A DNA stretch of 59,814 bases, counting the filler. It is 3 parts of 3 records of this genome, joined end to end, with 100 filler letters (N's around TTAATTAATTAA, not from the genome) between each part and the next. Parts side by side here need not be neighbours in the genome. Positions count along the whole stretch, not along the records: positions 1 to 29,207 come from SRR22947725_2138; 2 more parts are not named here. One strand, 5' to 3'. The notes below the pieces were generated by a model, which had not been told where the DNA came from, made no database searches, and saw only the letters and a list, made by a program, of their open reading frames with translations. Shown here one piece after another: positions 1 to 24,471 of the stretch; the first letter of the stretch is position 1; each line of letters opens with the position of its first letter. Both the position numbers and the translations under genes were made by a program.

Positions 1-3000
1 GTAAGCACCGCTACCTACTGTAAATGACGCATCTTTTCTGTTTACCCAAGGAATCATACCGAGTCCTCTAGCATTAACAGCAGGCATAGTAAGACTGCCG
101 CCATCCATTCGCTTCCAAACTACATGCTCTGGTAAAAAGTTTCTAGCCGCACTTCTTTTACTGTAGTAGCCGAACAATCCGGTATTACCTTGATTGGCAC
201 TCGATGATAGATAATGCGTTGCTCCAGTTATACCTATACATTCAGTTGCATAAGTACCTTGGCTTTCATGGAAACTATTTTGCGAAACAGTACTTTCATC
301 CCAGAATAAATCGCCAGTAGGATATCTACAGGCATTGGCCCTAGCCATATCACCGCTCTGTATAGTACGATGCCATTTGGCGTCGGCTGGTAAAGCATTA
401 CCGGCGGGATAGTCGCCAGCAACAACAGGTACGAATTGACTTTTGTGAATCTGTACTTCTACATGAGGACCAGCAGTAGCAGGTCCAACATATCTGTCTT
501 TGTTGTGAACTTTAGCAGTGTCCCAAGCAATAGTACCGGCGTGGATAGAGTCTCCTACACCCACCATAGTCAGCATGTCACCTGTACAGGTAATACTGTC
601 ACGGTCAGCCTTAGCGACCAATGGTAGTTCACTCTCATGACTAATCACTATTAGGTGTCTACTAGATAACCCACTTACACAAAAGTCAGATACAAATGCA
701 GCCGACAAACCATCACCTGTCACTGGAGCAGGAGAAGAGCCAGCCAAACAAGTTTCAGCAGCGCCGTAAGGATTGAAACCTAAGAAAGGATGCCAAGCAC
801 CTAAACCAGCAGCATAGGTGTTACCAGTTATATCTAGTGAATTGAAGTAAGAATATCTCTCCCCATGCCAGCCGACTGCACCTACTGCTTTAGTTCGGTC
901 TACTGCGTCTACATAACCGCTAAAGTGAACTTGAGTCATATGGTCTCTGGCCGAGTTTCCAGAATCATTGTTATATCTGTGAGTACCTGCTTTAGTCCAA
1001 ACATAAGCCTCGTAAGTCGTACCTCCAGCAAGACTGGTCAGTTGGCTATGGTCATGAGGGTTTCTGAAATTAGTAGAAACTCCTCCAGTAGTATCTGGGT
1101 TTTTACCTAATGTTAGAGTTAAGTTAGGTGCTGAATAAGATGTTGACACATAAGGTGCGTAATAAGCATTAGTTCCGTCACTCAATCTTATCCAGCCATA
1201 TTCGGGTAATTTGTCAAAACTACCATTGATGACTACAGTAGCAGCGCTTTCGCCTTCTTCTTGTGAATAACTTTGAACAGTTGCTGTGACCCAACCATAT
1301 CTGTCTTGCTTGTGAGCATTTTGCATTGAGGGCATAAATGTACCACCCATAGCCTTGAGCGGGTCTTTACCGGGGAATGTATTGATTGAAGCACTAATAA
1401 TAGTAGCCAACTCTTCTGCGTTCTGAACACGAGTTGCATCGACTATGACTATGTTTTCATCAACAGTCTGATTAGTAGGTGTACCACCGTAAAAGCCCAA
1501 GTAAGCATTTGCTAACAAGCCACAAGGTCTGAAAACTGTAGGGTTCTTAGCAGCCCCGCTACCATTAGCGATTCTACCAGCAGTACCAGTAGGATGGTCA
1601 GGGTTTTTACTTACATGGTTATCTAAGAAATGACCACCCGGATGATATCCGCCATCCATGTGCCAAACAGCAGCAGACCGTCTAGTCTTAGGGAAGTTAG
1701 AACCGCCTATCGTATTTGCAGCACCTCCAGCAAGTGCTACAGGGACATGATTAAACGGATGGAAATGCTTGGGTAATACTCTACCAACTACTTGACTTGC
1801 TCCACTACCTTCGTAATAGAAAGCCTTTACATTTGTTTGGTCGTAACTTTTAGTAGCACTAGCATCTTCTGACGGGAAACCTTTGGTAGGTTGCCAGTTC
1901 ATAACATAATTAAACGCAGTCTCGTTGTTTTTCTGGAAGAAAGTAGTCATAGGTAAGTGAGCCAAAGCGCTACCTCTGTTGAAACCGCTATGCTCAGTCA
2001 AATCACCGTTAGCCAGTTGATTTGGTAGGAATGTATCTTTAGTCGCATCGTTGTTGTAATGAATAGGTACTGCGCTGTAACCATTACCTGTTGTAACTAT
2101 ATCAGCACCCTGTGGCTCATGTGCTGCTGTATTGTGAGGGAAAGCCTGACCCGGACCAAATATCATGTAGGTAGTTTGGTTATTTGTATCCCCCGATGAA
2201 CTATATCTAGCGTGAGGATGAGCGAATCTAAGAACTATTGGACTGGGGATGTTTACACTGACTGTGTTTGTGCCGTCAGTGTAATCTATTCCTGTCACTT
2301 TATCGTTAGCACCCTTAGCCATGTCGAAGGTAAGTATAGCATCTTGGTTGAAGAAAGGAGGATGATTTTGACCTTTGTGTTGGTCAAGATAAGGTGTACC
2401 GGGGAACATAGCCAGCATAGCATTGGTATCGAGTAGTGCGTAAGAGCCAGCCACCTCTCCTATATTCTGCATCCCGGCGCTACCTGTCGGGCCAGAAGAA
2501 TAAGGATGGGTATAGAATTCGCCGTAATCGTTTTGCGTACCGTCGTTTATGTCGACAACCGCACCGCTAAATCCACCACCGAAGTAGAGAGGCACCCAGT
2601 GGTCTGGGCTATCTCTACCGCCACGGAAGTAAAGGAATGGACTAGATTGTTTGCTACCTGCTCTTCTAATACCATCTGTTTTGATAGCATCGTAAGTGTC
2701 AGCGTATCCTTTGAAAATTATATCACTAGCCGATGGTGTAGGCCAATTAGAAGAACTAGCGTTGCCTACATAGACGACTCTAGTAACACAGGTTGAGCCG
2801 GGCTCACTTCTTACTGTAGCGTATTTATCAGAACTGTATCTAATCAAGAAAGGCTCACCCCAACTGACTGCATTGTTACATGCAAGTTTACCAAACAAAG
2901 CCCATGTTTGACCGCCTGCTACATCTATGTTAGTAGTTCCATGAGTGGCACTTATTAACGCAGATGGTGAATCAATTCTAGGTATAATCCTATCACCGGC

Positions 3001-6000
3001 TACATCAATGAAGTTTTCACCTCTTAGATTTCTTTGCCAGATTGTAGTATCGACTATGTTGTTTTGGCTATCGACTAGCACAGGGGTAGCCGTATTTGCA
3101 TTCGCTCCTCTATACTTGGTTGTAATTTGAAGTATAGTAGAAGGTATGTAACCAATGTCTAAGCGAGTACCTGCATCCATTTCACTTGTGGATAAACCAC
3201 CAGTGTGTTTACTACTTACCGCAGCATCAGTCGAAGCACCGTCAAGTAAACCGAAGTCTTTGGTTCTGTCTACTTCAAACAACTTACCTAGAGGCGTTTT
3301 GTTGTCAGCCATCGTCTTTATTCTAATAGCGGTAGGGCTGACACCCCAATCACCTAATGTTTTCCCATCGGGAGCGAACATGTGAGTACAGTCAAAACTA
3401 GATGCTTTTACACCTTCTTGCTCAGAGTTTGATGAGTTAATAGCATACTCTACAGCGGCAGCCATTACTTCGTCAGTTAGTAGACAAGTAAAGTTAATTC
3501 TCGGACTGAGTATTAGACCCGGCCCACCGGCTACTATCTCGGTTACATTTGTAACACCGTAGAAAAAATGCTTGTTAGATGTGCCACCGGCTTTAGCGAA
3601 ATGAGAGCGGCTAGTATAGAATGTAGTCATACCTTGGTTTCCGCTAGTTCCATCATCATCGCTTAACTGCAACATACCAGATTCTGGAAAACCAAGATAA
3701 CCTAATATATCTGGATGAGAAAAAGAGCCTACATTATGATAAGGGTCTGTTAGTACAACTTCAAGTGTAGTTCCACTAAGTGTTGCAGTAACATGCACAC
3801 CTACATGTGGACTCGGATAATTGTTCCATAAGTTACCTTTGAAAGGCTGCAAAGTTCCACCAGTCAATTCTCCGCAGACTTCACCTTTACCAACCATATG
3901 CTTACCTATGGTAAATCCACCTTGACCAACATCTCTATCATCAAAATGAATGACAACTTCTTCATCTAATGTAGGTGGTAAGTAGGTATTGTCGTTAGCG
4001 AAACTCTCACCAAACTGTCTGTAAACAAAACGAATGGTATGATTGTCTCCTCTATGGTCAACCATTCTTATGCCATAAAGCGGCGACTTGCCGATATTCT
4101 GCTTTTTCATATCATCTTGGGGTATGTATCCGCCAGTCGTACCAACTGTAGTCACAGTCATTGAATCGGCTGAGTTAGCAGCATTACCGTATTTAGTTCG
4201 GAAATTAGCCTGTGTGCCATCATTATCGTAGCCCCATTTACTTACATCAGGTGCCCAGCCCGGTATACCTGCTTGGGTTAAGCCACCAAAGTTAATTCTG
4301 GCTTTGGCTCTGGTACCCACTCTTAACCCGTCTACTAAGGTAGAGGAAGGGCTCTTAGTTTCAAATGATTCGTTAAGTAAAGTATTGCTATTTCTACCAC
4401 TGACTAATTCTATATTAGCATCGGCTAGTATTCCCGGACCAACTATACCGTCTGCTCCTAGATTGAGATTGTTTATGAATGGGTCACTAGGGTTTTCTGG
4501 AGGTAGGTGCTCTTTGAGTGTAGTAATAGGAGCAAATGGTCTACCGAATCTGTTGATAGGCATAGGGGCCGGGTGCATGTTTTCACCAGTTACCTCGTCA
4601 GGCTGGCACCAGTAATTTCTGAATCTACCACCGTGACCAATAAGGAACTGAGGTCTGTAAGGGCTCTGTGCCTTACTACTGTCTAACCAAGTACAGAAGT
4701 TTCTTCCAGCAGCACCCGGAACTGTTGAATGTATTACTATGGAAAAGCCCGGATTATCTTCTGAATCAAGTACTACTCTTCCTAAATGCGCTCTTACATA
4801 ACCCATGTGAGTACCACGGTCATGACTAGAGAAGGCCTTGCTTGTATCCCAGAATGGAGCAGGGTCGTGAGTAGAGGCGGTTGCTGCAAAGTCAGCATGA
4901 AGATGAGTGGCAGTAGGGTCTGTGTTGCTACTGTAAGCGTTTGATTTAGGACCGGGGCTGGTCAAGTCAAACTTTGAGCCATCGCCTAAGAATTGGTCAT
5001 TCGGTCTACGAGCGTGTGTCTTACCATTTTTGGCACCGGCTTGATTGATTAGCCTAACTACTTCTCTAGCAGCAGACTCTATGTTAGTCACACCGTCTTT
5101 GAGGCGCACTTCTCCTAAATCAACAGTAAGTCTTCTAACGAAGTCCATTTGGTTCCAATGGTTTAGGTACTGTAATCGACTTTCATCGTGAAATGTCAAA
5201 TCAAGAGTGGTGTTTCTTATACCCTTCATAGCCAAGAAAGTAGGTATTACCCTAGTACCGTCAGGTGTATCAAAGAAAGTAGATGATTCTCTACTAGTCG
5301 AGTCTATTATCTGGTGGTCGGTAATTGCATCGCTAGCAGATGCCACTGCTGGATTAGTCCTAACACTGTAACTATCTTTGGCTATATTGCCCAGCCCACC
5401 TACATTGTGTTCGGACAAGCCGCCGGTTACACTTTTATTAACATCAGAAGCATGTGCGTAACTGGCTTCTATAAAGTCTGATTTTTCTGTAGCGAGTAGT
5501 AATTTATTTTGACTAGGGAAACCTGCCGCTACATCTAGTTGAGAACCTAAACCAGTAACTGAATTTACTATAGTACCGGCTGCTGTAGTGGTTACATCTG
5601 AACCTATTTTAGCGGCAGCAGGGCTAGATTGTACTTGCATATGTAAATCTTGGAATGCAATAAATTCACGGTCATGACCTACATCGTACAGCAGTATCCT
5701 AACAAAGTCATCAGTGCACTGGTAAGGGTCTAAGTAAGCAACTACTGGTACAATTGCATCAGTGTTCAAAGCCTCGTAATTTAACACAATTGTTTTATTG
5801 ATATGTTGAACTAGATTCTTAGCAGTTTCTATACAAGTATTACCGATTAAGAAGTTCTCTAAAGGTATGCTATCTCTAGGGTTATTGTTAAGCGTACCTT
5901 GTCCACCATTAAAGCCAGTCCATACTTCTGCTTCGTTTAGCGTTCCCCGACTCTTACAAAACAAACCTTCGATTGCGTGAGGATTAGTATAGTGCATGTT

Positions 6001-9000
6001 CATCCATACAGTATCACCTTGTCTTAGACCGCCGGGGCAATAAGGATGTGCCCAAGCCCTATTGAGGAATGTTTCTAACACTTGAGGATATGTGGTGTTT
6101 CCGGGTATAACATGCAGGTCTTCAACATATATTTCGTCACCTACTGCGGGCGTAAATCCACTATCAGGACTAACAATAGTAAATACATTACCTACCCTGT
6201 TATCGTAAAATCCACGATTGACTGTTCCGCTTCCGTTCCTAAATGCAACTCTAAATTTGTAATTAGCATTAGGAGAACTGATAGGGAACAAACTAGCATC
6301 GTCTAGCGTAAGAGATGTAGCGGGACTTCCAGTTACAGCAACAACTGTTGCTCTAGGTCTTTTGCTGACTACTTTAGGAAGGTGAGGGTTAGTCGAGGGG
6401 CCTGCTTTTAATTCAATAGCACTGACATACTGCTTGAGTCCGTAATCGGTGTTACCACCTTGAGTCATTACATTTGACCTATCATAATAGAATGACCTGC
6501 GATTCTCATAACCTGCACTGATAAGGCTAGGATTATCAGCGATACTGTTGTAATTCATATCTTGATATCCGGGTGCTGGAGTAAGATGTGCGCCTACTTT
6601 GAGGTCACGGAAGAAATTTTCACTGGCTATAAAGTCATCACCATGAGCGCCAGCAACTTCTAAATAATGACTGGTAGTATTTCTTGCATCGTATATTACC
6701 CACTCGCCGTTTGGTAAGAAAGCCCTACGATACCTAGCACCTCCGCTAATACCTGCTACATCTGTAGCCGGTGCAGTAGGTATAGGGAAAATGTTAGCGT
6801 CTTCGACATATATCTTATGTCCACTAGTAGTATAGGGTTGAGTAACTTTAGTACCACTGCGATGTGATTTGTTTTGAATAGAATAAGAAAATGGGCCAAA
6901 TATCTCAGGGTCTTGCGGGGAAATCGAATCTGGTCTTCTACCTACAGGGTTAGGACTCCAAGAATGCGCTGTATGAGTAGCGTCTACATGCAGTTTCATA
7001 CTGTTGTCTGGTCCGGGGAATATACCTTTGTCGGGATTATCAAAGAAGAACTCCTCAAACAAAGGAATCTCAACCAAAGCCCTAGTACTGGCGTATTGCG
7101 TACCTAGTTGGTAGTCGTGCTGAACAGTATCTAAGGATTGAAAAAGTCTATCATTGATAGTAGTTCCATCATTGCACATTGACTCTTCACTAAACTTGTC
7201 GTCTACATGCAGTACACTACCCTTTACTATACCAGTAGCGGTTATCCAATCTGCAAATGTATCTGATTCACTACCGTCTGCTTGTAAGAATTTACCTGTC
7301 CCTAATTGGCTACCCGATGCAAATGTGAACACATCTCCTGTTTTACTAGCGTATTCAGCACTAGCAAACTGAATTTGCTCCCCTTGATTACCGGCTATTT
7401 CTAAGTATATTCTACCTGTTTTAGGGAAACAATATGTACCCCATGACTGTAAATCGGTAGCCTTGTTGTTAAGAGGTAGAACAGTAACAGTGGTAGAAGA
7501 AGTAGCACTGACTGCTGTTTGACAATCTCTTCGAGTGTTCCACGCTAGTCTAGCGAGTGGACTTGGGTCCCATGTTTCCTTGGTGTTAATCGCACCTTGA
7601 CCTGCGCCTCCAAGAGTAATCGCCACTACTGGTGCGCCCGGCATAATCTCTTTGACAATGTGAGAATCTGGACTTGCAGAGCCTTTTACGCTGACAGTAG
7701 AAGATGCAATGTCGCTAAGTAAACCGTGCGCTCTGAGTACCGTGTTACCGTCGCCATCATCTCCAAATGATAACACTCTACCTCTTGACATTAGATGCTC
7801 TACACTTATGTGATTTCTCATCTCTGTATCCTTTACTAGTTTAGACAACTGAGCAAAACGACTTCTGTCGCTAGGTTGTACAACTAGTGTAGTAATGTTG
7901 CTCCTTGATTTATGTTCAATAATGTCAAAGTATTCATGTACAGCAGTGCTTTGATTAGTACTACCTCTACCTGTTGATTGAGGTTCTAAGAACAATTCAT
8001 CTTTAATTACTACGGCATCAGAAGTACCTGCACCTATTGTAACACTGCCAGAAGCAACTGCTGTTACAGTACCTAGACTTTTACCATTGGCTTTGTAAAT
8101 AATGTCGTTAACTGCTATGGTATCGCTCACTGTACCGCCAATTACATTCATGGCACCAGTAGTAGACGCTGAATAGTCTGCACTAAATGTGAGGCCTAAT
8201 CTTTGCCTAGTACCATTGGTGGTTTTTCTTAACTTTACATTTGATATTTCTTCGTAATCAGCAGATTTAACAAAGTGATTACGGATTAGTATTTTATGAA
8301 AAACAGATGACCTAGAAGCCAGTTCAGATTGAGCGACGCTTATCGCTTGAGGAGTAGTTTGAGGAGTGTCAGTACTAGACTGAGGTAAATAATTAGTAGG
8401 GCACAGGCTCAGGTTTAATTGACTTTCTCCTACCAAACCTTCTGAATCATCGCCTTCTAATTGACCGTCGTCGAATGGGAATAAATTAGGAGTCTTGAAA
8501 GATAATACTCCTCCCGGAGAAACAACAGTCAAAGGTTTAGTATTAGCCGATGTCCTCATCAAGTCAAGAATACTAGTGGTACCTGTCACTATAGTACTAA
8601 CATCTGGTAAGGTTTTACTGACTAGTAATTTAGGAGAGTTGTCAATCATTTTTACTATTGCGTTATTAACTGCTGAGTTGTTAAAAGCGCTGTTATTAGG
8701 TGTCGCAGAGAAAACTATAGTCTTAGCAGCATGGTTTACTTTAGCAGTTTGGTTGGTAAAAGAAGTAAATGGTTTATGTCCATCTATTGATATTTTACTA
8801 GCAGGTACCGTCAATCCGTCTACGCCAAAACACTTGATACTCTGTAGAGTCAGTGTCGCTGTTGATATATTAGCAGTAAGCCTAGATGTGGCACTTACAT
8901 CAAAATGGTCGCCAGTTCTATCTACTGCATTATAATGAATTTGTACAAACGGTGCATAGTCATATGTTTCTAATTCTGGGAGTACGAGCGTAGCGATTCT

Positions 9001-10767
9001 ACTTTCGGCGGAAGGAATAATTGACTTTGCATCGTTACTCGAATCGGTAGAAGAAATAGACTTGAGTAGAAACGGCTCAGTGTTAAATTGAGGGCCTCCT
9101 ATCGCTAATAAACTTCGCTGGGTGTCATCTATGTCAGACATACCGTTTTCTACAAATGTAGATACAACCGAAGAATAAACCAAGTCATTGATAGGTAAAT
9201 TACCATGGTTATCAAAACTTGATATTATACTGTTAACTGGTACCAAGTCCTTTACGCTACCAAACTGAGGCATGAATGTAGCGTTTATTACATCACTACC
9301 TGCGTCTAACTTCTTTTCTACACTATGAGATTCAGGAGGTGGTAGAAGTCCCATAAAGGGATGGCTCTTGACATGATTCAGTATATGTCTACCACTATGA
9401 CCTATTAGGAATCCTTCACCCATGTTAGTCGTACTCGCTGAAAACTGGTTGTATTCGTGAGAGTCAACTGCCATACTCATTGAAAACATTAAGCCGTGAT
9501 TTTCAAAGTCACTTTCGTCTATGATGACCTGACCTTGCCTTTGTGAAAACTGAGTACCGCTACCTTGTGGCTGGAACACATTACCATTACCGCCGTCTAC
9601 AAGACAGTCGCCTGTAATAACTACGAACTCACCAGCGTCGTGAGCCATTAGCAATCCTCTTCGACCAGTACTAGATGCAGCAAAATCAAGGTGAATAGAT
9701 TCTACTACTATGTTACCAGTACTGCTGTCTATAGAAATTAATCTAACTCTTTCAGGGGCTTTGTTAGTAGGCTTACCAGTCTTTGTATTGTAACCTAGAG
9801 GATTTATCAATAGGTTGTAAGGTACCTTTGGAATAGATATGTCACTAGTAGAAGTCGCTGCATATTTCTTTACGGTGTAGTTACCTTGGCTATAGTCACT
9901 CGCTGGATGACTAAAGTTGGCAAAGGTTTGTCCAGTTTGTCCAGTTAACTCTTCAATCAACGCTGCGGCTGCGGTAGAACCTATAGAGATTGTAGACTGA
10001 CTGGTGCTGGCTGTCAAAGCAGGTGTAGCGACCCTTGTAGCAATAGGACTGATAGGTTCTTCAAATCGCCAAAGACCAAGTGTATTATCACCTTTCACTG
10101 GAGCAAACTGCTGTCTACCTGTAGGTAAAGCACTGGATGAAAAATGTACAGTTTCCAGTGTACCTCTAAAGTCACCACCTCTTCCGCCCAAAAACATTTG
10201 ACTTTGCTGAGGTACGAGTTCGTGCTCTTCTTCCAGAACTTGCTCGACAAGTAAATCACCGTTGACATGCATACTGATTATTCTTCTGTCGAAAGTTACA
10301 GTGACATTTAGCAATTCTCTAGTGCCGTCTGCGAAAGCGCTAACATCGTTAGAGTCAACACTAGACCCTAGGTTAGCAGAATTAATTGTTGAGTTGTTAG
10401 TAGGGAAAAGTATACCATCCCAGTAAGCAAGTAATCCGTTTGCCTTGTTTACGGCTTTAGCGCTACTCAGAGTGAAAACATTGTCTTTGCCATTATTCTT
10501 ATTCCTAAGTCTGACTTCAAAGAATGCAGGCGCTGCGCTACTAGGTGAGCCTACGGTAAGTCGCATAACATTGTCTTGTTCAAATATAGTCCCGCCAGAA
10601 TCAGGTACGAACCATGTTTCTAAAGTAAAAGAGCCCATCGAAGCAGGTAACCTTTTCCTTTCACCTTCTTGTATACCGTGTAGTCTAGTGTTACCAGTAG
10701 GTACTATAACGCTATCACTAATACCGTTGAACCTTAGTCCGTAACCAGCATCTATTAGTAAACTCAT
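1..10767 (-). CDS. Giant virion protein (at least 3589 aa, 3' end beyond window), N-terminal LamG-like domain; probable tail tip/fibre/adhesin
   Basis: ATG at 10767, 1 nt after the upstream stop: MSLLIDAGYGLRFNGISDSVIVP...GSFTLETWFVPD...MFLGGRGGDFRGTLE...LGLWRFEEP. The same frame is open in every segment I translated down to base 1 (GMIPWVNRKDASFTVGSGAY). The ORF track lists no long minus-strand ORF here, as expected if there is no stop. Confidence 0.9.
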   Translation of the reverse strand, partial: MSLLIDAGYGLRFNGISDSVIVPTGNTRLHGIQEGERKRLPASMGSFTLETWFVPDSGGTIFEQDNVMRLTVGSPSSAAPAFFEVRLRNKNNGKDNVFTLSSAKAVNKANGLLAYWDGILFPTNNSTINSANLGSSVDSNDVSAFADGTRELLNVTVTFDRRIISMHVNGDLLVEQVLEEEHELVPQQSQMFLGGRGGDFRGTLETVHFSSSALPTGRQQFAPVKGDNTLGLWRFEEPISPIATRVATPALTASTSQSTISIGSTAAAALIEELTGQTGQTFANFSHPASDYSQGNYTVKKYAATSTSDISIPKVPYNLLINPLGYNTKTGKPTNKAPERVRLISIDSSTGNIVVESIHLDFAASSTGRRGLLMAHDAGEFVVITGDCLVDGGNGNVFQPQGSGTQFSQRQGQVIIDESDFENHGLMFSMSMAVDSHEYNQFSASTTNMGEGFLIGHSGRHILNHVKSHPFMGLLPPPESHSVEKKLDAGSDVINATFMPQFGSVKDLVPVNSIISSFDNHGNLPINDLVYSSVVSTFVENGMSDIDDTQRSLLAIGGPQFNTEPFLLKSISSTDSSNDAKSIIPSAESRIATLVLPELETYDYAPFVQIHYNAVDRTGDHFDVSATSRLTANISTATLTLQSIKCFGVDGLTVPASKISIDGHKPFTSFTNQTAKVNHAAKTIVFSATPNNSAFNNSAVNNAIVKMIDNSPKLLVSKTLPDVSTIVTGTTSILDLMRTSANTKPLTVVSPGGVLSFKTPNLFPFDDGQLEGDDSEGLVGESQLNLSLCPTNYLPQSSTDTPQTTPQAISVAQSELASRSSVFHKILIRNHFVKSADYEEISNVKLRKTTNGTRQRLGLTFSADYSASTTGAMNVIGGTVSDTIAVNDIIYKANGKSLGTVTAVASGSVTIGAGTSDAVVIKDELFLEPQSTGRGSTNQSTAVHEYFDIIEHKSRSNITTLVVQPSDRSRFAQLSKLVKDTEMRNHISVEHLMSRGRVLSFGDDGDGNTVLRAHGLLSDIASSTVSVKGSASPDSHIVKEIMPGAPVVAITLGGAGQGAINTKETWDPSPLARLAWNTRRDCQTAVSATSSTTVTVLPLNNKATDLQSWGTYCFPKTGRIYLEIAGNQGEQIQFASAEYASKTGDVFTFASGSQLGTGKFLQADGSESDTFADWITATGIVKGSVLHVDDKFSEESMCNDGTTINDRLFQSLDTVQHDYQLGTQYASTRALVEIPLFEEFFFDNPDKGIFPGPDNSMKLHVDATHTAHSWSPNPVGRRPDSISPQDPEIFGPFSYSIQNKSHRSGTKVTQPYTTSGHKIYVEDANIFPIPTAPATDVAGISGGARYRRAFLPNGEWVIYDARNTTSHYLEVAGAHGDDFIASENFFRDLKVGAHLTPAPGYQDMNYNSIADNPSLISAGYENRRSFYYDRSNVMTQGGNTDYGLKQYVSAIELKAGPSTNPHLPKVVSKRPRATVVAVTGSPATSLTLDDASLFPISSPNANYKFRVAFRNGSGTVNRGFYDNRVGNVFTIVSPDSGFTPAVGDEIYVEDLHVIPGNTTYPQVLETFLNRAWAHPYCPGGLRQGDTVWMNMHYTNPHAIEGLFCKSRGTLNEAEVWTGFNGGQGTLNNNPRDSIPLENFLIGNTCIETAKNLVQHINKTIVLNYEALNTDAIVPVVAYLDPYQCTDDFVRILLYDVGHDREFIAFQDLHMQVQSSPAAAKIGSDVTTTAAGTIVNSVTGLGSQLDVAAGFPSQNKLLLATEKSDFIEASYAHASDVNKSVTGGLSEHNVGGLGNIAKDSYSVRTNPAVASASDAITDHQIIDSTSRESSTFFDTPDGTRVIPTFLAMKGIRNTTLDLTFHDESRLQYLNHWNQMDFVRRLTVDLGEVRLKDGVTNIESAAREVVRLINQAGAKNGKTHARRPNDQFLGDGSKFDLTSPGPKSNAYSSNTDPTATHLHADFAATASTHDPAPFWDTSKAFSSHDRGTHMGYVRAHLGRVVLDSEDNPGFSIVIHSTVPGAAGRNFCTWLDSSKAQSPYRPQFLIGHGGRFRNYWCQPDEVTGENMHPAPMPINRFGRPFAPITTLKEHLPPENPSDPFINNLNLGADGIVGPGILADANIELVSGRNSNTLLNESFETKSPSSTLVDGLRVGTRAKARINFGGLTQAGIPGWAPDVSKWGYDNDGTQANFRTKYGNAANSADSMTVTTVGTTGGYIPQDDMKKQNIGKSPLYGIRMVDHRGDNHTIRFVYRQFGESFANDNTYLPPTLDEEVVIHFDDRDVGQGGFTIGKHMVGKGEVCGELTGGTLQPFKGNLWNNYPSPHVGVHVTATLSGTTLEVVLTDPYHNVGSFSHPDILGYLGFPESGMLQLSDDDGTSGNQGMTTFYTSRSHFAKAGGTSNKHFFYGVTNVTEIVAGGPGLILSPRINFTCLLTDEVMAAAVEYAINSSNSEQEGVKASSFDCTHMFAPDGKTLGDWGVSPTAIRIKTMADNKTPLGKLFEVDRTKDFGLLDGASTDAAVSSKHTGGLSTSEMDAGTRLDIGYIPSTILQITTKYRGANANTATPVLVDSQNNIVDTTIWQRNLRGENFIDVAGDRIIPRIDSPSALISATHGTTNIDVAGGQTWALFGKLACNNAVSWGEPFLIRYSSDKYATVRSEPGSTCVTRVVYVGNASSSNWPTPSASDIIFKGYADTYDAIKTDGIRRAGSKQSSPFLYFRGGRDSPDHWVPLYFGGGFSGAVVDINDGTQNDYGEFYTHPYSSGPTGSAGMQNIGEVAGSYALLDTNAMLAMFPGTPYLDQHKGQNHPPFFNQDAILTFDMAKGANDKVTGIDYTDGTNTVSVNIPSPIVLRFAHPHARYSSSGDTNNQTTYMIFGPGQAFPHNTAAHEPQGADIVTTGNGYSAVPIHYNNDATKDTFLPNQLANGDLTEHSGFNRGSALAHLPMTTFFQKNNETAFNYVMNWQPTKGFPSEDASATKSYDQTNVKAFYYEGSGASQVVGRVLPKHFHPFNHVPVALAGGAANTIGGSNFPKTRRSAAVWHMDGGYHPGGHFLDNHVSKNPDHPTGTAGRIANGSGAAKNPTVFRPCGLLANAYLGFYGGTPTNQTVDENIVIVDATRVQNAEELATIISASINTFPGKDPLKAMGGTFMPSMQNAHKQDRYGWVTATVQSYSQEEGESAATVVINGSFDKLPEYGWIRLSDGTNAYYAPYVSTSYSAPNLTLTLGKNPDTTGGVSTNFRNPHDHSQLTSLAGGTTYEAYVWTKAGTHRYNNDSGNSARDHMTQVHFSGYVDAVDRTKAVGAVGWHGERYSYFNSLDITGNTYAAGLGAWHPFLGFNPYGAAETCLAGSSPAPVTGDGLSAAFVSDFCVSGLSSRHLIVISHESELPLVAKADRDSITCTGDMLTMVGVGDSIHAGTIAWDTAKVHNKDRYVGPATAGPHVEVQIHKSQFVPVVAGDYPAGNALPADAKWHRTIQSGDMARANACRYPTGDLFWDESTVSQNSFHESQGTYATECIGITGATHYLSSSANQGNTGLFGYYSKRSAARNFLPEHVVWKRMDGGSLTMPAVNARGLGMIPWVNRKDASFTVGSGAY

Positions 10768-10768
10768 A

Positions 10769-12769
10769 TCATACACCTATTACGAAGTCCGATGCCGATA
10801 ACTCAAGAGTATAGGCGTAGTAGTTGTTCCCAGCATCATAACGCACATGAAGTTTTTCAGGGATTATCCTAATACCGCCTTCATTTGCACTAGATAAGTT
10901 AGTTTGCAGAGTCAGCCATATTGCATCTTTGCCCAGTCCGACTAAGAAACCAAACAACGATTCTATCTCGTTTGGAGTTATCTGTTTTAGTTTTCTTTCA
11001 AACCAACTATCAGGGCTGTCATCTGTTTCCAGTCCAGTCATGTTTAGTAGTAAATTATCCATTTTCTTAGATGCGGCTCTAGTGTTGTTAGCAGAACCCT
11101 TGTCTAAAACAGGCACTTCGCCAAATGTCAAAAAGAAATTTCTGGCTACACCTGTTACACCTGTACTCTGTATTAGGCTGTCATATGGTATCTGTATGCC
11201 TCTAAGTAAATCATTAGTTCTGTCAGCATTAGAAACTATACCTATCAAATCTTGAGCCTTATCGCCCGCTGACTTCCTTGACTCTACCGGAGTAGTACTG
11301 GTGCTGTGAAATTCTTGCTCTTGAAAAAGCGCTTTCAAATCCGAACTTATAATACTAGGGTGCAGAATAGGTTCTGGTGGACTATAGACTTGTTCAAAAG
11401 TTAGTATGGTGCCGCTTTGGACTACTCTAAATGCATCAGTTAATTTTAAACTAGCACCAAGGGCGTTACTAGGTGCTGATAAAAATCCGGGCATTAATGA
11501 CCCCGTTATGATTGCATCACCACTTAATTCAAACGCCGCTTTTACTCTGTTAGCCATTTCTAAAGCGGGATTATCTACTGTATGTATATTTTTAATTGGT
11601 ACTTTGATTACAGCATCATTACTCGCTGCATCACGAAAAGAACCTGTTCTTGACTCAAATGCTTTATGTAGTATAGTCGGGGAAGAACTATAACTATTTA
11701 CTATATCAAACTGTAACCTAACACCTATACGGGGTGTAGAAGAGGACATTGTAGAAGAGCCAGCAACCGTAAGATTACTGTCCATAGAACTATCGTGGGT
11801 AACAGCGTTCTGTTTGTAAACCTTGTCAGGGTTAGAAAGCCAAAAACTAGGTATCAACTTTATAGTCTGCCCGGCAAAACGATTTGCTAATATTTGATTA
11901 CTTATGTCTACTTTTAACATTGAATTACCTAGAATAATAGAGTCGTTATTAGCGTAAAGTTTTATTGTGTAAACTGCTTTGTCTCCGTCTGCTATAGCAG
12001 GGTCGTCTATGATGTACTGTATATGTCCTACAAAATCTCCAATGTGATTAAATAACTGCGTGGCTATAGTTACTTGAGCAGTATTAGGTAAAGCGTTAGA
12101 TAAATTTCCGGTACAAGTAATTGTATTTCCAGAAACAGATTGAACAATACCTATCTCCGTTCCGTTTTGCTGTATTAGTTTATCACCTGCTAAAAAAACT
12201 TGCTCCGCTGTAGGTACATTTGAAGCAGAACCAGTATAAGATACGGTGAAAACACTAACGCTAGTAGAAAAAGTACTAGTAGATTCAAAATTCATATTTG
12301 GGTGTATGTTAATTTGGGCTGTACCACTATTGGCAAATTCAATGGAACTTCCGGGTAAAGCCATAGCGACTATGGTGTCAGTTTGCCCTTTACTATGTGC
12401 ATTTACAGATGAATATTGGTGCATACCAAAATGCCTTATTTGCGTAGTAAACGAAGCGTGTCTACTACCAAGTCTTGGTGACCTGCGGCTATTGGTAGGA
12501 AGAAACGCACCAAAATTAATTGCGCTTCTCATAGGTTCTGCCTCAAATATACCATCAGAATTAGCACTTACACCTTCGTCGTCAACGAATATACCGTTAA
12601 CTTCTATCTTTATCTGAGGCGTGTTAGTATCTATTGCGAAACGCTTGAGCATGTTATCGGGTGTAGGGAAAGCACTGGCTTTCCTGTCTACAGACATATC
12701 TATGCTTTGGGCTACCAAATCAATCTGGTCTTTACCGTTAGCAAGTAATAATCTGATTGGTATCGCCAT
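10769..12769 (-). CDS. Distal-tail (Dit/tube-initiator)-like structural protein with inserted beta domains, paralog 2
   Basis: 666 aa; GAGGTGA RBS; shares N- and C-terminal blocks with the adjacent 844-aa gene; lies after the tape-measure locus. Confidence 0.55.
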   Translation of the reverse strand: MAIPIRLLLANGKDQIDLVAQSIDMSVDRKASAFPTPDNMLKRFAIDTNTPQIKIEVNGIFVDDEGVSANSDGIFEAEPMRSAINFGAFLPTNSRRSPRLGSRHASFTTQIRHFGMHQYSSVNAHSKGQTDTIVAMALPGSSIEFANSGTAQINIHPNMNFESTSTFSTSVSVFTVSYTGSASNVPTAEQVFLAGDKLIQQNGTEIGIVQSVSGNTITCTGNLSNALPNTAQVTIATQLFNHIGDFVGHIQYIIDDPAIADGDKAVYTIKLYANNDSIILGNSMLKVDISNQILANRFAGQTIKLIPSFWLSNPDKVYKQNAVTHDSSMDSNLTVAGSSTMSSSTPRIGVRLQFDIVNSYSSSPTILHKAFESRTGSFRDAASNDAVIKVPIKNIHTVDNPALEMANRVKAAFELSGDAIITGSLMPGFLSAPSNALGASLKLTDAFRVVQSGTILTFEQVYSPPEPILHPSIISSDLKALFQEQEFHSTSTTPVESRKSAGDKAQDLIGIVSNADRTNDLLRGIQIPYDSLIQSTGVTGVARNFFLTFGEVPVLDKGSANNTRAASKKMDNLLLNMTGLETDDSPDSWFERKLKQITPNEIESLFGFLVGLGKDAIWLTLQTNLSSANEGGIRIIPEKLHVRYDAGNNYYAYTLELSASDFVIGV

Positions 12770-12778
12770 ATTTTCACC

Positions 12779-15313
12779 TCACATTATTATATCTGCTGCT
12801 ATGAACTTAAGACTGAATTCATACGCTTTCATTTCTGCTTCTCTATGAGTAACAAAGTCTGTTACTATACCGCTTATGCCATTTTTAAAATGACCTTCTG
12901 CTGTATTCGAAAACAAACGAGAAGCGTGTATGTTGTTAACAGAAGACAACTTATCACTAGTGTTACCTTCTGTGGTTAAGAAAAAGTTTCTTTGGGCAAC
13001 CTCGGTATCTAAGTTAGACTTACCTTTGGTAGCCAAAGAGTTGTAGGGTATCTGTATACCCCTTATGTAGTCACCCTGTGCATCTGGGCTGTTGTAAAAA
13101 GTATCTTGGACAAAACCACTCGCTACATCTATGACCTTAGCAATTCTGTTACTTGGTACGAAGTTAAGGAAGTTATTGCTGTTAGATAATATACCAATCA
13201 AATCCTGCGCTTTGTCTCCACCGCTCTTTACTCGCTTACCTGATTTACCCCCAGTAAACCCATCTATGATAGGTGCTTGCCCGACACCCAAATTAGTATT
13301 TATTTTGTCAGATAGTTTACCCAAAGATGTAGCGTGACTTTGGGTAATGGTTAATCTTGAATTGTGACCGCTAGAAGATTGCGATATTGCTGTGGTAAAC
13401 GCTTTGTCCAGCGTTAGATTACCTGCTGTATTAACTTGCTTACCTAGAGTAATGTAATTACTAGTTATCGCTTTGGAAAATAAATAAGTGATGTATTCGT
13501 CTGTTCTTGTCAGACTACCGCCGCTATCTCTAGTAGAGCCGTTTTGATGGGAAGGAAATTCAGGGCCGACTGCTTTTTCTGGAAGAGCCGACTCTTCAAA
13601 GGTATCAGCATTCTTAACTGGTATAATCAAAACTGGAGATAAATCGTTGCCGTTTAAACCGGAAGCATCTCCGTAATCAAAAGGCTCTATCCAAACTTGG
13701 TCTCCAGTAGCGTGAGTTGCACCGCCTTGCGACAAGTTAACTGTTATTTGACTAGAGGTAACAGCAGTAACTGTGCCAAAGTATTCTTGCGAACCGCTAG
13801 TTTTACGGTAACTTGCAGCACTATCGTTTTCTTTGAATACTATCCTCATGTTTCGGTTGTTTTCTGTAAGTTCAAACCACTCTCTTGGGTCTCCACCGGT
13901 AACAGGTAAAACAGCAGCACCTGATGATATAGAGTCCAATACCATGTTAGTCTTTCTTCTTTGATTTAAGAAACCATGCGGCTCCTTAACAGAACCAACT
14001 AATTCTTTGTCAAACCCTACTCTTAGGTGCTTATGGTCGTAGGAATATTGCGCTAAACCTTCGTATTTACCTTCTAACAAATGCAGCCCATATTTCCTAG
14101 CAAGATAACCTTCTATCTGATTTCTCTCGTCTGTAGTAACTGCTTTGTTGTAAATTAAAATCTCTTGTACAGCGCCATCTAAACTAGTGCTGGTATCGTG
14201 ACCTATGTACAGAGTACCACTAGTAGCAGGGGTGTAATCTACACCTGATGTTTTACTACCTACTTCTTCTCCACGAGAATATATCTTAACAGTATCTGCT
14301 TGGGCGTTACCGGTAGTGTCATCCATAGTGTAGCATATTAGTTGAGTGCTGTAACTTCTACTACTACCAGTACTAGACGCTTGTGTATCAGCAGAGCCAG
14401 ATTCATCCCAACCTGCTACTACTCTTGTATTACCTTGGTCAAAGGATAAAGAATAACCATTACTAGCAGTTTTCAAAATAGGCCGAACACCTGTTGAAAA
14501 GTTTCTAGCAATGACGAATATCGAAAACTCCTCGGAGTTGAGGAAAGCCGTGTAAGGTATATCTAGCCTATCAGTGCTGTTAAATACAACTTCTGCTAAT
14601 CCTCCGGTAGATGCAATTCTATGAAACGGTCTTAGTCCGGCAGTAGACTGAGTAGCGTGTCTGCCGTTACCGCTTGCATCATTCCATGTTTCGACAGTTG
14701 TATTTTCGTTACCAACTATATTTTCAGGCTTTAGCCATAACTGTAAACCAGTCTTCACAGGATTGTCCAGAGCAGTTGCTTCTTCTACCCAGTAAGCCAA
14801 AGGTAAATCTATGTACCTTTTACTCCAATGTTGTAATATACGATTCCCTAAATCTCCAGAAGATGTAGGGTGGCCACCTAGACCTCCACCAAAGCCTCCG
14901 CCAAATCCACCAGAAAAGCCGCCTCCGCTACCTAAACCAGTGCTACCTATAGCAGATACTCCCATGGCACCTTGAGTGTTAAACGCAGATGGCATCAGAC
15001 CGCCTGTCATACCTCCACCACCACCACTGTCAGGTCTAGGTGTAAACAGTTGTTGAGGCTGATAAAAGTCAATCAAGGCAGTTGCACTACTGGTTTCCTC
15101 TTGACCTACATCATCCGCTAGCACTCCTTGCACTTCTACTGCGACTGCGGCTTGGTTCAAATCTATACCTAACTTTTTAGCATCGAAGAAAGGAATTCCA
15201 AAATTACTGATTTGTCTTTCTACTACTATGTCTATACTTGTAGCATCCAGAGAGATAGTTTCACCGTTCTCTTGAACTAAGCGAACAGGCATTTTCTCTC
15301 CGGCGTCTACCAA
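12779..15313 (-). CDS. Distal-tail (Dit)-like structural protein with Gly-rich linker and LamG/ConA-like domain, paralog 1
   Basis: 844 aa; LQLWLKPE...WNDASGNGRHATQ...FSIFVIAR...LYIG...VQEILIYNKAV...IEGYLARKYGL is a LamG-type signature; immediately follows the TMP-like gene. Confidence 0.6.
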   Translation of the reverse strand: MVDAGEKMPVRLVQENGETISLDATSIDIVVERQISNFGIPFFDAKKLGIDLNQAAVAVEVQGVLADDVGQEETSSATALIDFYQPQQLFTPRPDSGGGGGMTGGLMPSAFNTQGAMGVSAIGSTGLGSGGGFSGGFGGGFGGGLGGHPTSSGDLGNRILQHWSKRYIDLPLAYWVEEATALDNPVKTGLQLWLKPENIVGNENTTVETWNDASGNGRHATQSTAGLRPFHRIASTGGLAEVVFNSTDRLDIPYTAFLNSEEFSIFVIARNFSTGVRPILKTASNGYSLSFDQGNTRVVAGWDESGSADTQASSTGSSRSYSTQLICYTMDDTTGNAQADTVKIYSRGEEVGSKTSGVDYTPATSGTLYIGHDTSTSLDGAVQEILIYNKAVTTDERNQIEGYLARKYGLHLLEGKYEGLAQYSYDHKHLRVGFDKELVGSVKEPHGFLNQRRKTNMVLDSISSGAAVLPVTGGDPREWFELTENNRNMRIVFKENDSAASYRKTSGSQEYFGTVTAVTSSQITVNLSQGGATHATGDQVWIEPFDYGDASGLNGNDLSPVLIIPVKNADTFEESALPEKAVGPEFPSHQNGSTRDSGGSLTRTDEYITYLFSKAITSNYITLGKQVNTAGNLTLDKAFTTAISQSSSGHNSRLTITQSHATSLGKLSDKINTNLGVGQAPIIDGFTGGKSGKRVKSGGDKAQDLIGILSNSNNFLNFVPSNRIAKVIDVASGFVQDTFYNSPDAQGDYIRGIQIPYNSLATKGKSNLDTEVAQRNFFLTTEGNTSDKLSSVNNIHASRLFSNTAEGHFKNGISGIVTDFVTHREAEMKAYEFSLKFIAADIIM

Positions 15314-15315: not shown

Positions 15316-15726
15316 TTAACCACTCCTACTAAAGCCGCTCTGTGCCAAAGAGCCACCAATCTTAGACTTCAACTCTTTAGTGACCATTGCGCTTATTTCT
15401 TTAGCCAATGTTCGCTTATCTGTTTTGTCTGTAACTCCACTAACATCTATTTTCAGATTAACCGTAACATTAGTTTCTTGATTAACGCCCCCACCAGATA
15501 CTGGTGCTATACTTTCACCTGTACTTTGTTGCATAGGCTGTGTCCTACTCATGTCTTTAAGAGACTTAGTAAGGTCAACTGTATTTGATTTAGTCATAGC
15601 CATTGACTTGGTAAACTTGTCCATTTGTTGCTGTAAAGCCTGCATATTTTCTTTAGCCGTTTTGCTATATTCACTAAAGTTTTTCATGGACTCTACGGTC
15701 CTTGGGTCTATGTTATCGTCTACCAC
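15316..15726 (-). CDS. Very short tape-measure-like protein
   Basis: 136 aa in the TMP slot; helical/coiled-coil N-half; C-terminal NVTVNLKIDVSG...LAKEISAMVTKELK resembles TMP C-termini; GGAGG RBS before GTG. Confidence 0.55.
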   Translation of the reverse strand: MVDDNIDPRTVESMKNFSEYSKTAKENMQALQQQMDKFTKSMAMTKSNTVDLTKSLKDMSRTQPMQQSTGESIAPVSGGGVNQETNVTVNLKIDVSGVTDKTDKRTLAKEISAMVTKELKSKIGGSLAQSGFSRSG

Positions 15727-15995
15727 TCGTCTTCCTCCAGTCTAGCCACTAAGTCGTAGCCCAGATAAACTGCGCCTTCGGCAGCCTGTTCTTCACCCTG
15801 CATAGCCTGAGCCCAGTAGAGAAGTTGCTTAGCGTCATTTATATTCATTTCCCTTACATCCTTAAGTGTCATACTGTAGTGTGTCATTAGTAAATATTCC
15901 ATTGCTTGTTTCTGATAGCGAAGCCGGTCACTCACAGGTCTCCCGTTAATGAAGTACTTGATTTGTCCAACTTCGCTGGCCGAAAAACTAGCCAT
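15720..15995 (-). CDS. Tail assembly chaperone -1-frame extension (gpT-like)
   Basis: Overlaps the upstream chaperone in the -1 frame; YLLMTHYSMTLKDVREMNINDAKQLL resembles gpT-type segments. Confidence 0.6.
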   Translation of the reverse strand: MASFSASEVGQIKYFINGRPVSDRLRYQKQAMEYLLMTHYSMTLKDVREMNINDAKQLLYWAQAMQGEEQAAEGAVYLGYDLVARLEEDEW

Positions 15996-16267
15996 TCCAT
16001 AACCTGACTAGGGTCTGGTAAAAGTTTAGTAAGTTTCTGACCATCTTTTGGAGATAGGTTCGCTATATCAATTTCTATAGAACGACCATCTGGGTCGGTA
16101 TAACTAAGCCAATGGCTAAAAGCATGTCGCCAGTAGTTTGAAAAATCTAGGCTACCGTGAGTCATTAGCGGTGCGATTTCTTGCACATGATAAAATGTTA
16201 ATCGCCGCTTGCTAACTTCTACTGGTTTACCGTTTATTGTTATTTTACTCTTGTTCTCCTGTGACAT
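15932..16267 (-). CDS. Tail assembly chaperone (gpG-like)
   Basis: 111 aa between tail tube and TMP slot; KITINGKPVEV..RLTF start; T-run near the 3' end. Confidence 0.6.
   Translation of the reverse strand: MSQENKSKITINGKPVEVSKRRLTFYHVQEIAPLMTHGSLDFSNYWRHAFSHWLSYTDPDGRSIEIDIANLSPKDGQKLTKLLPDPSQVMEWLVFRPAKLDKSSTSLTGDL
15982..15988 (-). promoter_or_regulatory. Putative -1 ribosomal frameshift site (GTT TTT C)
   Basis: CTA GTT TTT CGG in frame 0 versus AGT TTT TCG in the -1 frame, at the start of the overlap of the two chaperone ORFs. Confidence 0.55.
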
Positions 16268-21863: not shown

Positions 21864-22400
21864 TCAGCGTTGACCTAGAATCCACCAGCGGCCTGCTTGG
21901 CCGGTACTGACACTGGTTGCACCAAGATTACCATTACCAAATATTACTCTACTATTAGTTTCGTCAATACTTACTGAAAGATTTCCATCAGTCAAAGTTA
22001 CTGCACCAGTGTTTGGTCCGTGTTTAAACAAACTTTTGTTATTGGGGTTTGCTACTAACGAACCTGCTTCTAGTGTAATTTGAGTAGCACTATCTACCGA
22101 AAGAATTCTTCCCATCCTTTCTCTAACAGCATTGTAAAGGTCTTCACCTCTATTAAAATGAATTCTTGCGTCTACAGTATCTACAGTTATTACTGTATCT
22201 CCAATTTCAACACCGTCTGGTGTATCATCAATTTTAATGCCGGTATCATATGCAGATGTTACATGCCCACCTGCTGCAAGAACAGTTGATAATACTCCAT
22301 CAAATGATACAGAAGTACCACCGTCAGTAAAAGTTCCTGTAAGCATGAGCATATCGCCCATTACATGTGTTCTTGTGTCTGCTGTGTGTGATGCTACCAT
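21864..22400 (-). CDS. Hypothetical structural protein with inserted beta-barrel module
   Basis: 178 aa, G/T/S-rich beta composition; FNRGEDLYN...GRILSVDSATQITL module. Confidence 0.7.
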   Translation of the reverse strand: MVASHTADTRTHVMGDMLMLTGTFTDGGTSVSFDGVLSTVLAAGGHVTSAYDTGIKIDDTPDGVEIGDTVITVDTVDARIHFNRGEDLYNAVRERMGRILSVDSATQITLEAGSLVANPNNKSLFKHGPNTGAVTLTDGNLSVSIDETNSRVIFGNGNLGATSVSTGQAGRWWILGQR

Positions 22401-23337: not shown

Positions 23338-24471
23338 TCACTTCAAGTCACGGATAGAACCTTGACCTCCAAAGAAAGTTGTCCATACTTCACCCATTGT
23401 GCGGTAAAGTCCCTCTTGACCGAGGCGGTTAATGGCGAATGGGTCTCCAGTTTCAATTCCAGACTCAAAGTATTGAGTTGGTTTTGCAGTACTAAAGTAT
23501 AGGTAGTCAGTGTCCAGCATGTAAATTCTGCTGATAGCGTCACTAGCCATCTCTTTAGTTGGAATGATTGGTACACCGTTGTAAGTTGCTACGATGAAAC
23601 CTGCTTCCATACCCGGAACACCTTTTACACCGTTAAATGTTGGTACTACTCTCTTCTCTTCCATGAACCTTTGTTGGCTTTGTAGAAGTTGTTGAATTCT
23701 CATCAATGTATCATATCCAGTTAGCATAACCTTTGGATTTCCACCACGAGTCCAAACAAGTCTGAAAATTTCATCCAAGTGGTCAAGTGATAGAGTTCTG
23801 TTAGTAGAACCGCTGTCAGCAGAATCCTCAGCATATGACCAAGAGTTGGCTGCTACATTTCTGTCGATTGAGTAAATGTCTTCGTCGCCAGTATCGTAGT
23901 GAGTACCGGAAGTCATTGAGTTAACACCAGTGGTGATTCTGTCAAGTGATTCAAAGTCATTTCCTGCTACAGTTGTTACATCCTCAGTTAGCATATCGTT
24001 GATGTGCTCTGCGTGATGCTTACCCATTTCTTCTTTCAAGACTGAACGAATGTCACCTAGACCGTCGTCTTTGTCGTTTAGGAAGATTGCTGTCTCAGAC
24101 ATGTCGAATGAGTGAGCAATAGTTTTAGGCTTTGCTGCAACATTTTGGAAGGTAGGTTTGGTTGTGTCTGGTAGTGTACCGTTCTCTGCAATTCCGCCAC
24201 CAACAGTCTTGGAAGGCTTAGCAGTAACTACTCTCCATCCACTTCTGTCCCATGGTTTCTTTGGTAGAATTGAAAATGCGTTGAATTCTTGGTTTAGTTG
24301 TGACCAAACTTTTCTACCGTAGATTGCTTGGTATGTTCCTGCTGTTGTGCTTAACAATGGTGCATCAGCCTTCAATAGTTCTGAACCAGAGTATGAATAT
24401 CCCATACTTTGACCAGTACCGTAGTAGTAGCGCTCCATGTCGTTGATTGTTCTCATGTAATTTCTTGCCAT
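23338..24471 (-). CDS. Major capsid protein (HK97 fold)
   Basis: 377 aa after protease/scaffold; YGRKVWSQLN, LPKKPWDRSGWRV, FESLDRI, ATYNGVPIIP, GLYRTMGE; AAGGAG RBS. Confidence 0.9.
   Translation of the reverse strand: MARNYMRTINDMERYYYGTGQSMGYSYSGSELLKADAPLLSTTAGTYQAIYGRKVWSQLNQEFNAFSILPKKPWDRSGWRVVTAKPSKTVGGGIAENGTLPDTTKPTFQNVAAKPKTIAHSFDMSETAIFLNDKDDGLGDIRSVLKEEMGKHHAEHINDMLTEDVTTVAGNDFESLDRITTGVNSMTSGTHYDTGDEDIYSIDRNVAANSWSYAEDSADSGSTNRTLSLDHLDEIFRLVWTRGGNPKVMLTGYDTLMRIQQLLQSQQRFMEEKRVVPTFNGVKGVPGMEAGFIVATYNGVPIIPTKEMASDAISRIYMLDTDYLYFSTAKPTQYFESGIETGDPFAINRLGQEGLYRTMGEVWTTFFGGQGSIRDLK

Follow-up and report, generated by a model that had tools for sequence, protein, structure and literature searches.

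The window (the whole 59,814-nucleotide stretch of DNA analysed here) carries, on the minus strand from position 10767 to position 1, the greater part of a real and strongly conserved gene, which is a core gene of the virus group to which its contig belongs, the magroviruses. Its complete product, referred to below as the giant, would be about 5,600 residues long and resembles no described family beyond a LamG-like domain at its N-terminus. We put at about even the chance that the giant is carried in the virion as part of the distal tail or baseplate and helps attachment.

Results

The open reading frame and its length

Translation from the ATG at 10767 to base 1 gives 3,589 codons and zero stops, as an earlier note on this DNA had claimed. 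The ORF listing shows the frame solely when open ends are allowed (1..10776, minus strand, 3,592 aa, from an upstream GTG, 3'-open); the lack of a stop explains why an ORF caller that needs one would skip it. The ATG lies one base past the TGA of the co-oriented upstream gene, and the same first residues stand at the start of the orthologs.

The window joins three contigs, with G+C contents of about 42%, 52% and 28%, respectively. The G+C blocks and the linkers, the second of which lies at 48407-48418, mark the joins and thereby define 1-29208 as the viral contig. The giant ORF is cut by the contig end at base 1, not merely by the edge of the window.

1..10767, minus strand: giant gene, first 3,589 codons (about 64%), the 3' part lying beyond the contig end (open frame, orthologs)
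29209..29327, no strand: artificial spacer joining contigs, N-run and six-frame stop linker TTAATTAATTAA

In the second set of loci collected from IMG/VR, 30 ORFs have both ends and encode 5,191-5,747 aa; these full-length orthologs are colinear with few indels and are 53-93% identical to the window. The closest (L068) has 5,590 aa and is 93% identical over 3,583 aligned residues, and another (L099) has 5,607 aa and is 90% identical. Judged by these two, the window holds about 64% of a gene with a true size of about 5,600 aa.

The concatenation of contigs in the window, and the mixture of three compositions in the bin, might suggest an artefact, either a frame that is open by chance or a chimeric assembly. 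We give this explanation practically no credence and regard it as already refuted: the ORF lies entirely within one contig, and many independent assemblies hold orthologs with the same length and order. Chance is excluded by the length of the open frame at 42% G+C and by the 510 of 3,589 positions that are invariant in 131 aligned sequences.

Distribution

With the first 1,000 aa as query in IMG/VR, 69 of 77 candidate stretches encode a relative; they gave 67 loci with 32-83% identity, and the frame is open across the 13 kb examined in nearly all loci of this first set. The last 1,000 aa of the window ORF found a relative in 253 of 255 candidate stretches; we retained the best 80, which correspond to 78 loci. 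Among 5.8 billion proteins, a word-indexed search returned at least 280 clusters at E ≤ 1e-3 (2,128 scored); the 120 clusters listed are mostly of 5,100-6,017 aa, come from contigs of at most 150,014 bp and have 'hypothetical protein' as their sole name. A profile of residues 2101-3300, searched exhaustively against 1.84 billion representatives, returned no more than 161 proteins at E ≤ 1e-3. Homologs that are cellular non-virion proteins would have spoken against the earlier note; in neither of these protein searches was a relative seen on a contig of cellular size (none above about 150 kb).

Among the members at NCBI are a 5,203-aa 'hypothetical protein', encoded in the MAG of a Candidatus Poseidoniales archaeon, and a partial sequence named 'LamG domain-containing protein [bacterium]'. 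No match was found by tblastn with 3,000 aa of the giant in 50,697 GenBank phage records, or to residues 1001-2100 in the nearest genome (G001, 80% complete). The gene accounts for 15.7% of one record (104,980 bp, 98% complete) and for 17.8% of another (96,799 bp, 91% complete). The DNA, or part of it, occurs in 19 sequencing-run rows from 10 studies, with no RNA run among those listed.

The virus and its virion genes

Upstream of the giant, the contig carries a block of co-oriented genes that ends with the capsid gene, a protease and a ligase.

10769..12769, minus strand: g666, upstream neighbour of the giant, a fast-evolving paralog of g844 that has the small module described below (BLASTP; identity to relatives 30-71%)
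12779..15313, minus strand: g844, LamG-containing virion structural protein (Laminin_G_3 E 7e-10; phrog_10356 'virion structural protein' E 1.1e-16)
15720..16267, minus strand: g111 and g91, small ORFs with a 64-nt overlap that follow g691, candidate tail assembly chaperone pair
16485..18560, minus strand: g691, conserved beta-type protein (sequence and composition; 26-29% identical to L151_725)
21864..22400, minus strand: g178, small protein encoded in the head-tail connector region, with the small module (giant HMM 854-939 against residues 50-136, E 7.4e-08)
23338..24471, minus strand: major capsid protein, HK97/SU10 type (SU10_MCP E 2.1e-10; phrog_24667 E 1.2e-55)
24506..25897, minus strand: prohead serine protease (Peptidase_S78 E 1.9e-10)
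25929..29192, minus strand: 1,087-aa ORF with an ATP-dependent DNA ligase domain, adjoining the protease (DNA_ligase_A_M E 3.4e-06, 27.3 bits against a cutoff of 26.2)

Over 99% of its length, the capsid protein shows 31-34% identity to its counterparts in Haloarcula tailed viruses, and the contig thus combines a halovirus-like HK97 capsid with a ligase inside the structural module; the ligase ORF is probably cut by the contig end. In the text available to us of Philosof et al. 2017 (PMC5434244), an ATP-dependent ligase embedded in the structural module is a hallmark of magrovirus groups A and B. The replication and chaperonin genes typical of the group are found on related records, not on the 29-kb contig itself: of five related records that encode the giant, fused or split, DNA_pol_B is present in four (the fifth is a 69% complete record) and the Cpn60_TCP1 chaperonin in all five. 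With capsid, protease and ligase on the contig, and polymerase and chaperonin in the related records, the earlier call of a magrovirus, an archaeal head-tail virus, holds, and the assignment of the contig to the magrovirus type, of the order Magrovirales, is sound.

The tail genes are harder to name. The paralogs g666 and g844 have N- and C-terminal modules in common and differ in their middles (BLASTP). g691, which may be the major tail protein, is not tape-measure-like in sequence or composition, and no helical tape-measure candidate was found in the module. It weakly resembles the HVTV-1 gene gp128 (tblastn E 0.002), which precedes the annotated chaperone, and the place of g111 and g91 directly after it makes a chaperone pair possible. 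The links between the module and the annotated HVTV-1 tail genes are weak, and profile-versus-PDB searches with g666 and g691 returned nothing below E 0.01. The giant had been placed in the slot after the distal-tail genes; it does lie downstream of virion genes on the same strand, but the distal-tail identity of those upstream genes is putative, g844 being the sole one to match a 'virion structural protein' PHROG and Laminin_G_3. As the tail genes are poorly identified and a helical tape measure was not found, the tail-distal slot is deduced from position alone.

Composition and rate of change

The giant is rich in Gly (9.3%), Ser (9.1%), Thr (8.7%) and Asn (6.2%), and its composition is even along its length (G+S+T+N 33%, K+R 7.5%, Cys 0.6%), in agreement with the description as G/S/T/N-rich. 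No hydrophobic window reaches the level of a transmembrane segment, and the translated N-terminus has no signal peptide-like start. The beta-type 'modules' proposed earlier are not repeats, for self-BLAST of the closest full-length ortholog at E ≤ 1e-3 returned the self-hit alone. A repeat-array adhesin is accordingly ruled out, the ortholog having no tandem arrays and the small module being single in 28 of 30 orthologs. The idea of a tape measure protein is likewise rejected on account of the 33% of G+S+T+N and by models that consist mostly of strands and coil with short helices.

In the 131 aligned sequences the invariant positions fall together in stretches enriched in Gly, His, Asp, Asn, Pro, Trp and Tyr, and the C-terminal 2,300 aa, seen in the orthologs alone, are at least as conserved as the rest. 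Rates were compared in 22 loci, chosen from the 67 of the first set because they extend about 10 kb upstream, and the upstream gene order is the same in all 22. By best-HSP identity, residues 1001-2100 are closer to their relatives than g666 is in 21 of these loci and than g844 is in 20; in a divergent clade, represented by six of the loci compared, g666 and g844 align over just 9-33% of their length. Host-recognition proteins are usually the fastest to evolve. The greater conservation of residues 1001-2100 argues that the bulk of the giant is not the specificity determinant, and g666 and g844 fit the picture of a fast-evolving recognition protein better than the giant. The label 'adhesin' therefore fits poorly, there being no repeat array and the middle of the protein evolving more slowly than the two upstream genes.

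Domains, conserved blocks and a three-gene form

Within the window the following parts of the giant can be told apart.

10057..10731, minus strand: LamG/ConA-like N-terminal domain, residues ~13-237 (Laminin_G_3 in orthologs)
9433..10767, minus strand: part A, residues ~1-445, equivalent to the first gene of the three-gene form (matches HMM 25-442)
7951..8229, minus strand: small mobile module of ~75-90 aa, residues 847-939 (found in several virion-block genes)
4468..4905, minus strand: conserved block 1, residues ~1955-2100, with invariant His/Arg/Gly/Pro (columns common to giants and short homologs)
2623..4320, minus strand: multi-domain region with a confident predicted fold, residues ~2150-2715, of mixed alpha/beta type and including small beta-barrels
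2428..2610, minus strand: conserved block 2, residues ~2720-2780, the motif with the widest distribution in the family (invariant Gly/Asp/Tyr/His columns)

Laminin_G_3 (PF13385) was found at the N-terminus of 19 of 35 aligned orthologs (E ≤ 1, best E 1.6e-07), and precomputed matches to it exist for 23 of the 120 orthologs listed. The LamG-like start described earlier is thus seen in the orthologs, but the window copy itself is below threshold (E 0.0019, 18.8 bits against a cutoff of 27.6, residues 146-214).

Of the 30 full-length orthologs, 28 have a single copy of the small module, L131 has six and L133 has two. It also occurs in g666 (residues 147-233), in g178, in a 635-aa gene downstream of the giant in L099 and in the genes of the split form, so that the giant is flanked by virion-block genes that share a module with it. 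No identification of the module was obtained, a profile-versus-PDB search included (nothing below E 0.01). The length differences among orthologs consist of discrete inserts of ~65-130 aa at many sites and two larger ones. Near the C-terminus, five of the 30 orthologs have an insert of ~240-255 aa (the region spans 284-301 aa, against 47-48 aa elsewhere); Laminin_G_3 matches it in three of four tested, one of them above cutoff, and in L068 it matches phrog_10356, 'virion structural protein'.

The exhaustive search also returned 18 shorter proteins, 517-2,208 aa in length, whose match is confined to the ~55-residue core of block 2; many of them have a Laminin_G_3 domain at the C-terminus. An HMM built from the 30 full-length giants was run on these short homologs and their contigs. 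The longer ones have at least five blocks in common with the giant, in the same order, and all short homologs of 739 aa or more match block 1. On four contigs (L151, L153, L154 and L156, the results for the last two being identical and perhaps from one virus), three consecutive genes match the giant colinearly.

Part A, 875-1,147 aa: first gene of the split form, giant HMM 25-442
Part B, 1,722-1,940 aa: second gene, giant HMM 453-2780
Part C, 2,800-2,947 aa: third gene, giant HMM 3617-5244

A fifth locus (L147) has the first two genes (971 and 1,944 aa) and a third, cut at the locus end, without a match. The split genes come after g691-like and g844-like genes, as the giant does. From this colinearity we conclude that the giant is the fused form of three neighbouring genes, or the three-gene block a split form of the giant. 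In L099 the gene directly downstream of the giant encodes an HD-domain phosphohydrolase and is followed by genes with sub-threshold tail-like matches.

Searches for a known family or fold

Beyond the weak LamG match, neither Pfam nor PHROGs identified a family in the window ORF. Five diverse full-length orthologs, searched in halves against Pfam at E ≤ 1, gave nothing real, and profile-versus-PDB sequence searches returned nothing below E 0.01 for five segments that span the whole protein or for one short homolog. No enzyme family appeared in the window ORF (E ≤ 0.1), in the five orthologs (E ≤ 1) or in the five profile-versus-PDB searches. Comparison by hhalign of the N-terminal 1,000 aa with g844 gave a mere 36-column match with a probability of 2%.

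The AlphaFold model of residues 1001-2100 is poor (mean pLDDT 50.8), and blocks 1 and 2 are the most conserved parts of the protein, yet have pLDDT values below 50 in the AlphaFold models. Foldseek returned nothing for the giant models at E ≤ 0.001, and their VIA fold scores are all below 8, the chance level by the calibration of the tool; by these two measures there is no family or fold match to any tail protein. A structure search of BFVD returned solely an unnamed ortholog. In the ESM Atlas, residues 1-1000 gave sub-0.9 leads to viral ConA-like proteins and residues 1930-2830 gave no usable match. A homotrimer prediction for residues 1949-2154 scored 0.00, was made without an alignment and carries no weight either way. 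The statement that no family could be recognised past the LamG-like domain has thus withstood Pfam, PHROGs, PDB profiles and two AlphaFold models.

Discussion

We suggest that the single gene of ~5,600 codons at the distal end of the virion gene block of these Poseidoniales-associated magroviruses would encode a non-repetitive chain of many small globular domains arranged on a fixed scaffold. Part A would comprise the LamG-like, lectin-type domain and a conserved domain, part B the long middle that holds the best-conserved blocks, and part C the C-terminal ~2,500 aa, which lie outside the window. The scaffold may carry optional inserts that differ between lineages, namely the small beta-type module and a second LamG-like domain near the C-terminus. 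In such an arrangement the conserved scaffold would serve as the assembly and structural core, and the LamG-like domains and inserts would bind glycans of the host surface and so bring about attachment and perhaps entry. Presence in the virion, location at the tail and binding of glycans are all features that we infer. The distal-tail reading is favoured by the position of the gene, the fusion of three neighbours, the lectin-type domains, the inserts and the module shared with virion genes.

The strong conservation and the invariant blocks are also compatible with an enzymatic or metal-dependent core, or with packaged cargo; judged from the alignment, the invariant His, Arg, Asp and Tyr residues would suit an enzyme or a metal site as well as a structural one. 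A cargo or ejection protein that enters the host with the DNA, and in which the His/Asp/Arg blocks are catalytic, would belong to the right size class, and it would fit the lack of repeats, an evolution slower than that of the neighbouring genes and the invariant His/Arg/Asp/Tyr/Gly columns at ~1955-2100 and ~2720-2780, which recur in the short homologs. The models, in which the conserved blocks appear not to fold as a monomer, may point the same way. We nevertheless consider such a role distinctly unlikely: no polymerase, nuclease, peptidase or other enzyme was matched (Pfam at E ≤ 1 in five orthologs; PDB profiles), lectin domains and surface-type inserts are hard to explain in an internal protein, and the beta- and coil-rich, acidic-polar composition, with its 7.5% of K+R, is not that of a nucleic-acid-binding protein. 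Cargo apart, a bolder proposal, to which we give a small but real chance, is that a virion mega-protein of ~600 kDa stands in place of a three-protein distal-tail assembly, and that its invariant His/Arg/Asp/Tyr blocks (~1955-2100 and ~2720-2780) make up a putative catalytic or metal-dependent site, of a kind not seen before, that acts on the Poseidoniales surface layer during entry.

A virion location off the tail tip, as a head, neck or whisker-type fibre or as a decoration network, seems improbable to us, for the giant follows the tail-type genes and occupies the end of the block farthest from the capsid gene, and the split genes keep that order. The HD-domain gene that directly follows the giant in L099 is non-structural, and this, together with the lack of homology to structural families, would be expected if the giant were a non-virion protein that remodels the cell surface or acts as a virus-factory scaffold. 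This we hold to be improbable, since the giant has neither a signal peptide-like start nor a transmembrane segment for a surface role, the module is shared with virion-block genes on both sides, the C-terminal insert matches a 'virion structural protein' PHROG and the upstream structural gene is co-oriented and 1 nt away. A distal-tail or baseplate component remains our preferred reading.

Should the giant prove to be an attachment or entry device, it would be a key to host range in a major group of marine archaeal viruses and a ready probe for the Poseidoniales cell surface; if the mega-protein proposal is true, about one-sixth of the genome would be an entry machine with no known counterpart. 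The relation between split and fused forms provides natural domain boundaries for expression and structural work. In the parts of the literature available to us, magroviruses rank among the most abundant planktonic viruses of the surface ocean, with hosts that have yet to be cultured (PMC5434244, PMC10160649).

The available text of PMC5434244, PMC10160649, PMC5332604 and PMC10768690, supplements aside, holds no description of the giant gene. One sentence in the portion available of a 2025 paper (PMC11706807) mentions a large LamG-like protein with function unknown in the morphogenetic module of Poseidoniales viruses. This is very likely the same gene or part of it, although the size stated there is 6 kb, against ~16-17 kb for the giant gene here. 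Apart from that mention, the literature text available to us reports neither the full length, the split and fused forms, the conserved blocks and the pattern of inserts, nor the absence of a detectable relative outside these viruses.

To our knowledge, no described archaeal virus protein approaches the giant, at 5,100-6,017 aa, in size. The giant is four to five times larger than the central fibre or tail tip proteins of siphoviruses (lambda gpJ, phage Chi), with which it has no sequence match; it gave no Phage-tail_3 match, and its fold scores do not rise above chance level. Bacterial and archaeal giant repeat adhesins, which are arrays of Ig-like or cadherin-like domains, resemble it in size and in their G/S/T/N-rich, beta-type composition, but the magrovirus protein has no internal repeats, no signal peptide-like start and no anchor. 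The virion RNA polymerase of phage N4 (3,500 aa) and the giant cargo proteins of crAss-like phages are, like the giant, non-repetitive viral proteins of several thousand residues that are conserved within their group; the giant differs from them in having LamG-like domains and no detected polymerase family or motif. The 'evolved' Dit proteins of siphophages of lactic acid bacteria are proteins of a few hundred residues that carry carbohydrate-binding modules on the Dit fold in the baseplate. They share with the giant a conserved scaffold in whose loops lectin-type and small beta-domains are inserted in a lineage-dependent manner; in the giant, however, the scaffold exceeds 5,000 aa and does not have a recognisable Dit fold.

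Genes around the giant gene and its relatives

The features discussed here are as follows.

Window 10769-15313, minus strand: g666 and g844, a paralog pair just upstream of the giant gene
Window 15720-16267, minus strand: two small ORFs of 111 and 91 aa, overlapping by 64 nt
Window 25929-29192, minus strand: ORF of 1,087 aa whose residues 660-762 hold an ATP-dependent DNA ligase domain
L099 (locus of a full-length ortholog of the giant gene) 18835-19269: HD-domain phosphohydrolase gene (HD_4; phrog_990, E 1e-35)

The products of g666 and g844 have in common an N-terminal module of ~65 aa (41% identical) and a C-terminal module of ~110 aa (39% identical), between which their middles differ, and the two genes diverge faster than the giant gene. 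In our reading, host recognition may really be the task of these two genes rather than of the giant gene. A long stretch rich in Gly lies near residues ~95-160 of the g844 product.

The small module of ~75-90 aa found in the giant protein has the behaviour of a mobile insert: most orthologs carry it once, and the L131 ortholog (1730-18895) has six copies at scattered sites. The giant frame is interrupted in two relatives, restarting at 14134 in L009 and ending at 7974 in L048; the cause may be an assembly error, a frameshift or a true break. In L099, its stop codon is overlapped by the HD-domain phosphohydrolase gene.

Tail assembly chaperone genes that use a programmed frameshift overlap in a similar way to the two small ORFs; no helical tape-measure gene was found after these ORFs. 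The ligase-domain ORF, which adjoins the prohead protease gene, probably runs on beyond the contig end; the ligase domain is the one part of its product with an assignment.

Make-up of the window and comparison with magroviruses

The window bin combines virus and cellular contigs of widely differing composition. Stretches of N with six-frame stop linkers join the three contigs, at window 29209-29327 and 48407-48418; the contigs have a G+C content of ~42%, ~52% and ~28%. The second contig opens mid-gene, within a cut AdoHcyase gene.

The record that holds L133, another full-length ortholog, carries a DNA polymerase of family B (G003:C1:73771-74918) that matches in two adjacent pieces, at profile positions 33-88 and 113-451. 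Split polymerase genes are reported for magrovirus group B1 by Philosof et al. (PMC5434244), and it is these that the two-piece match resembles.
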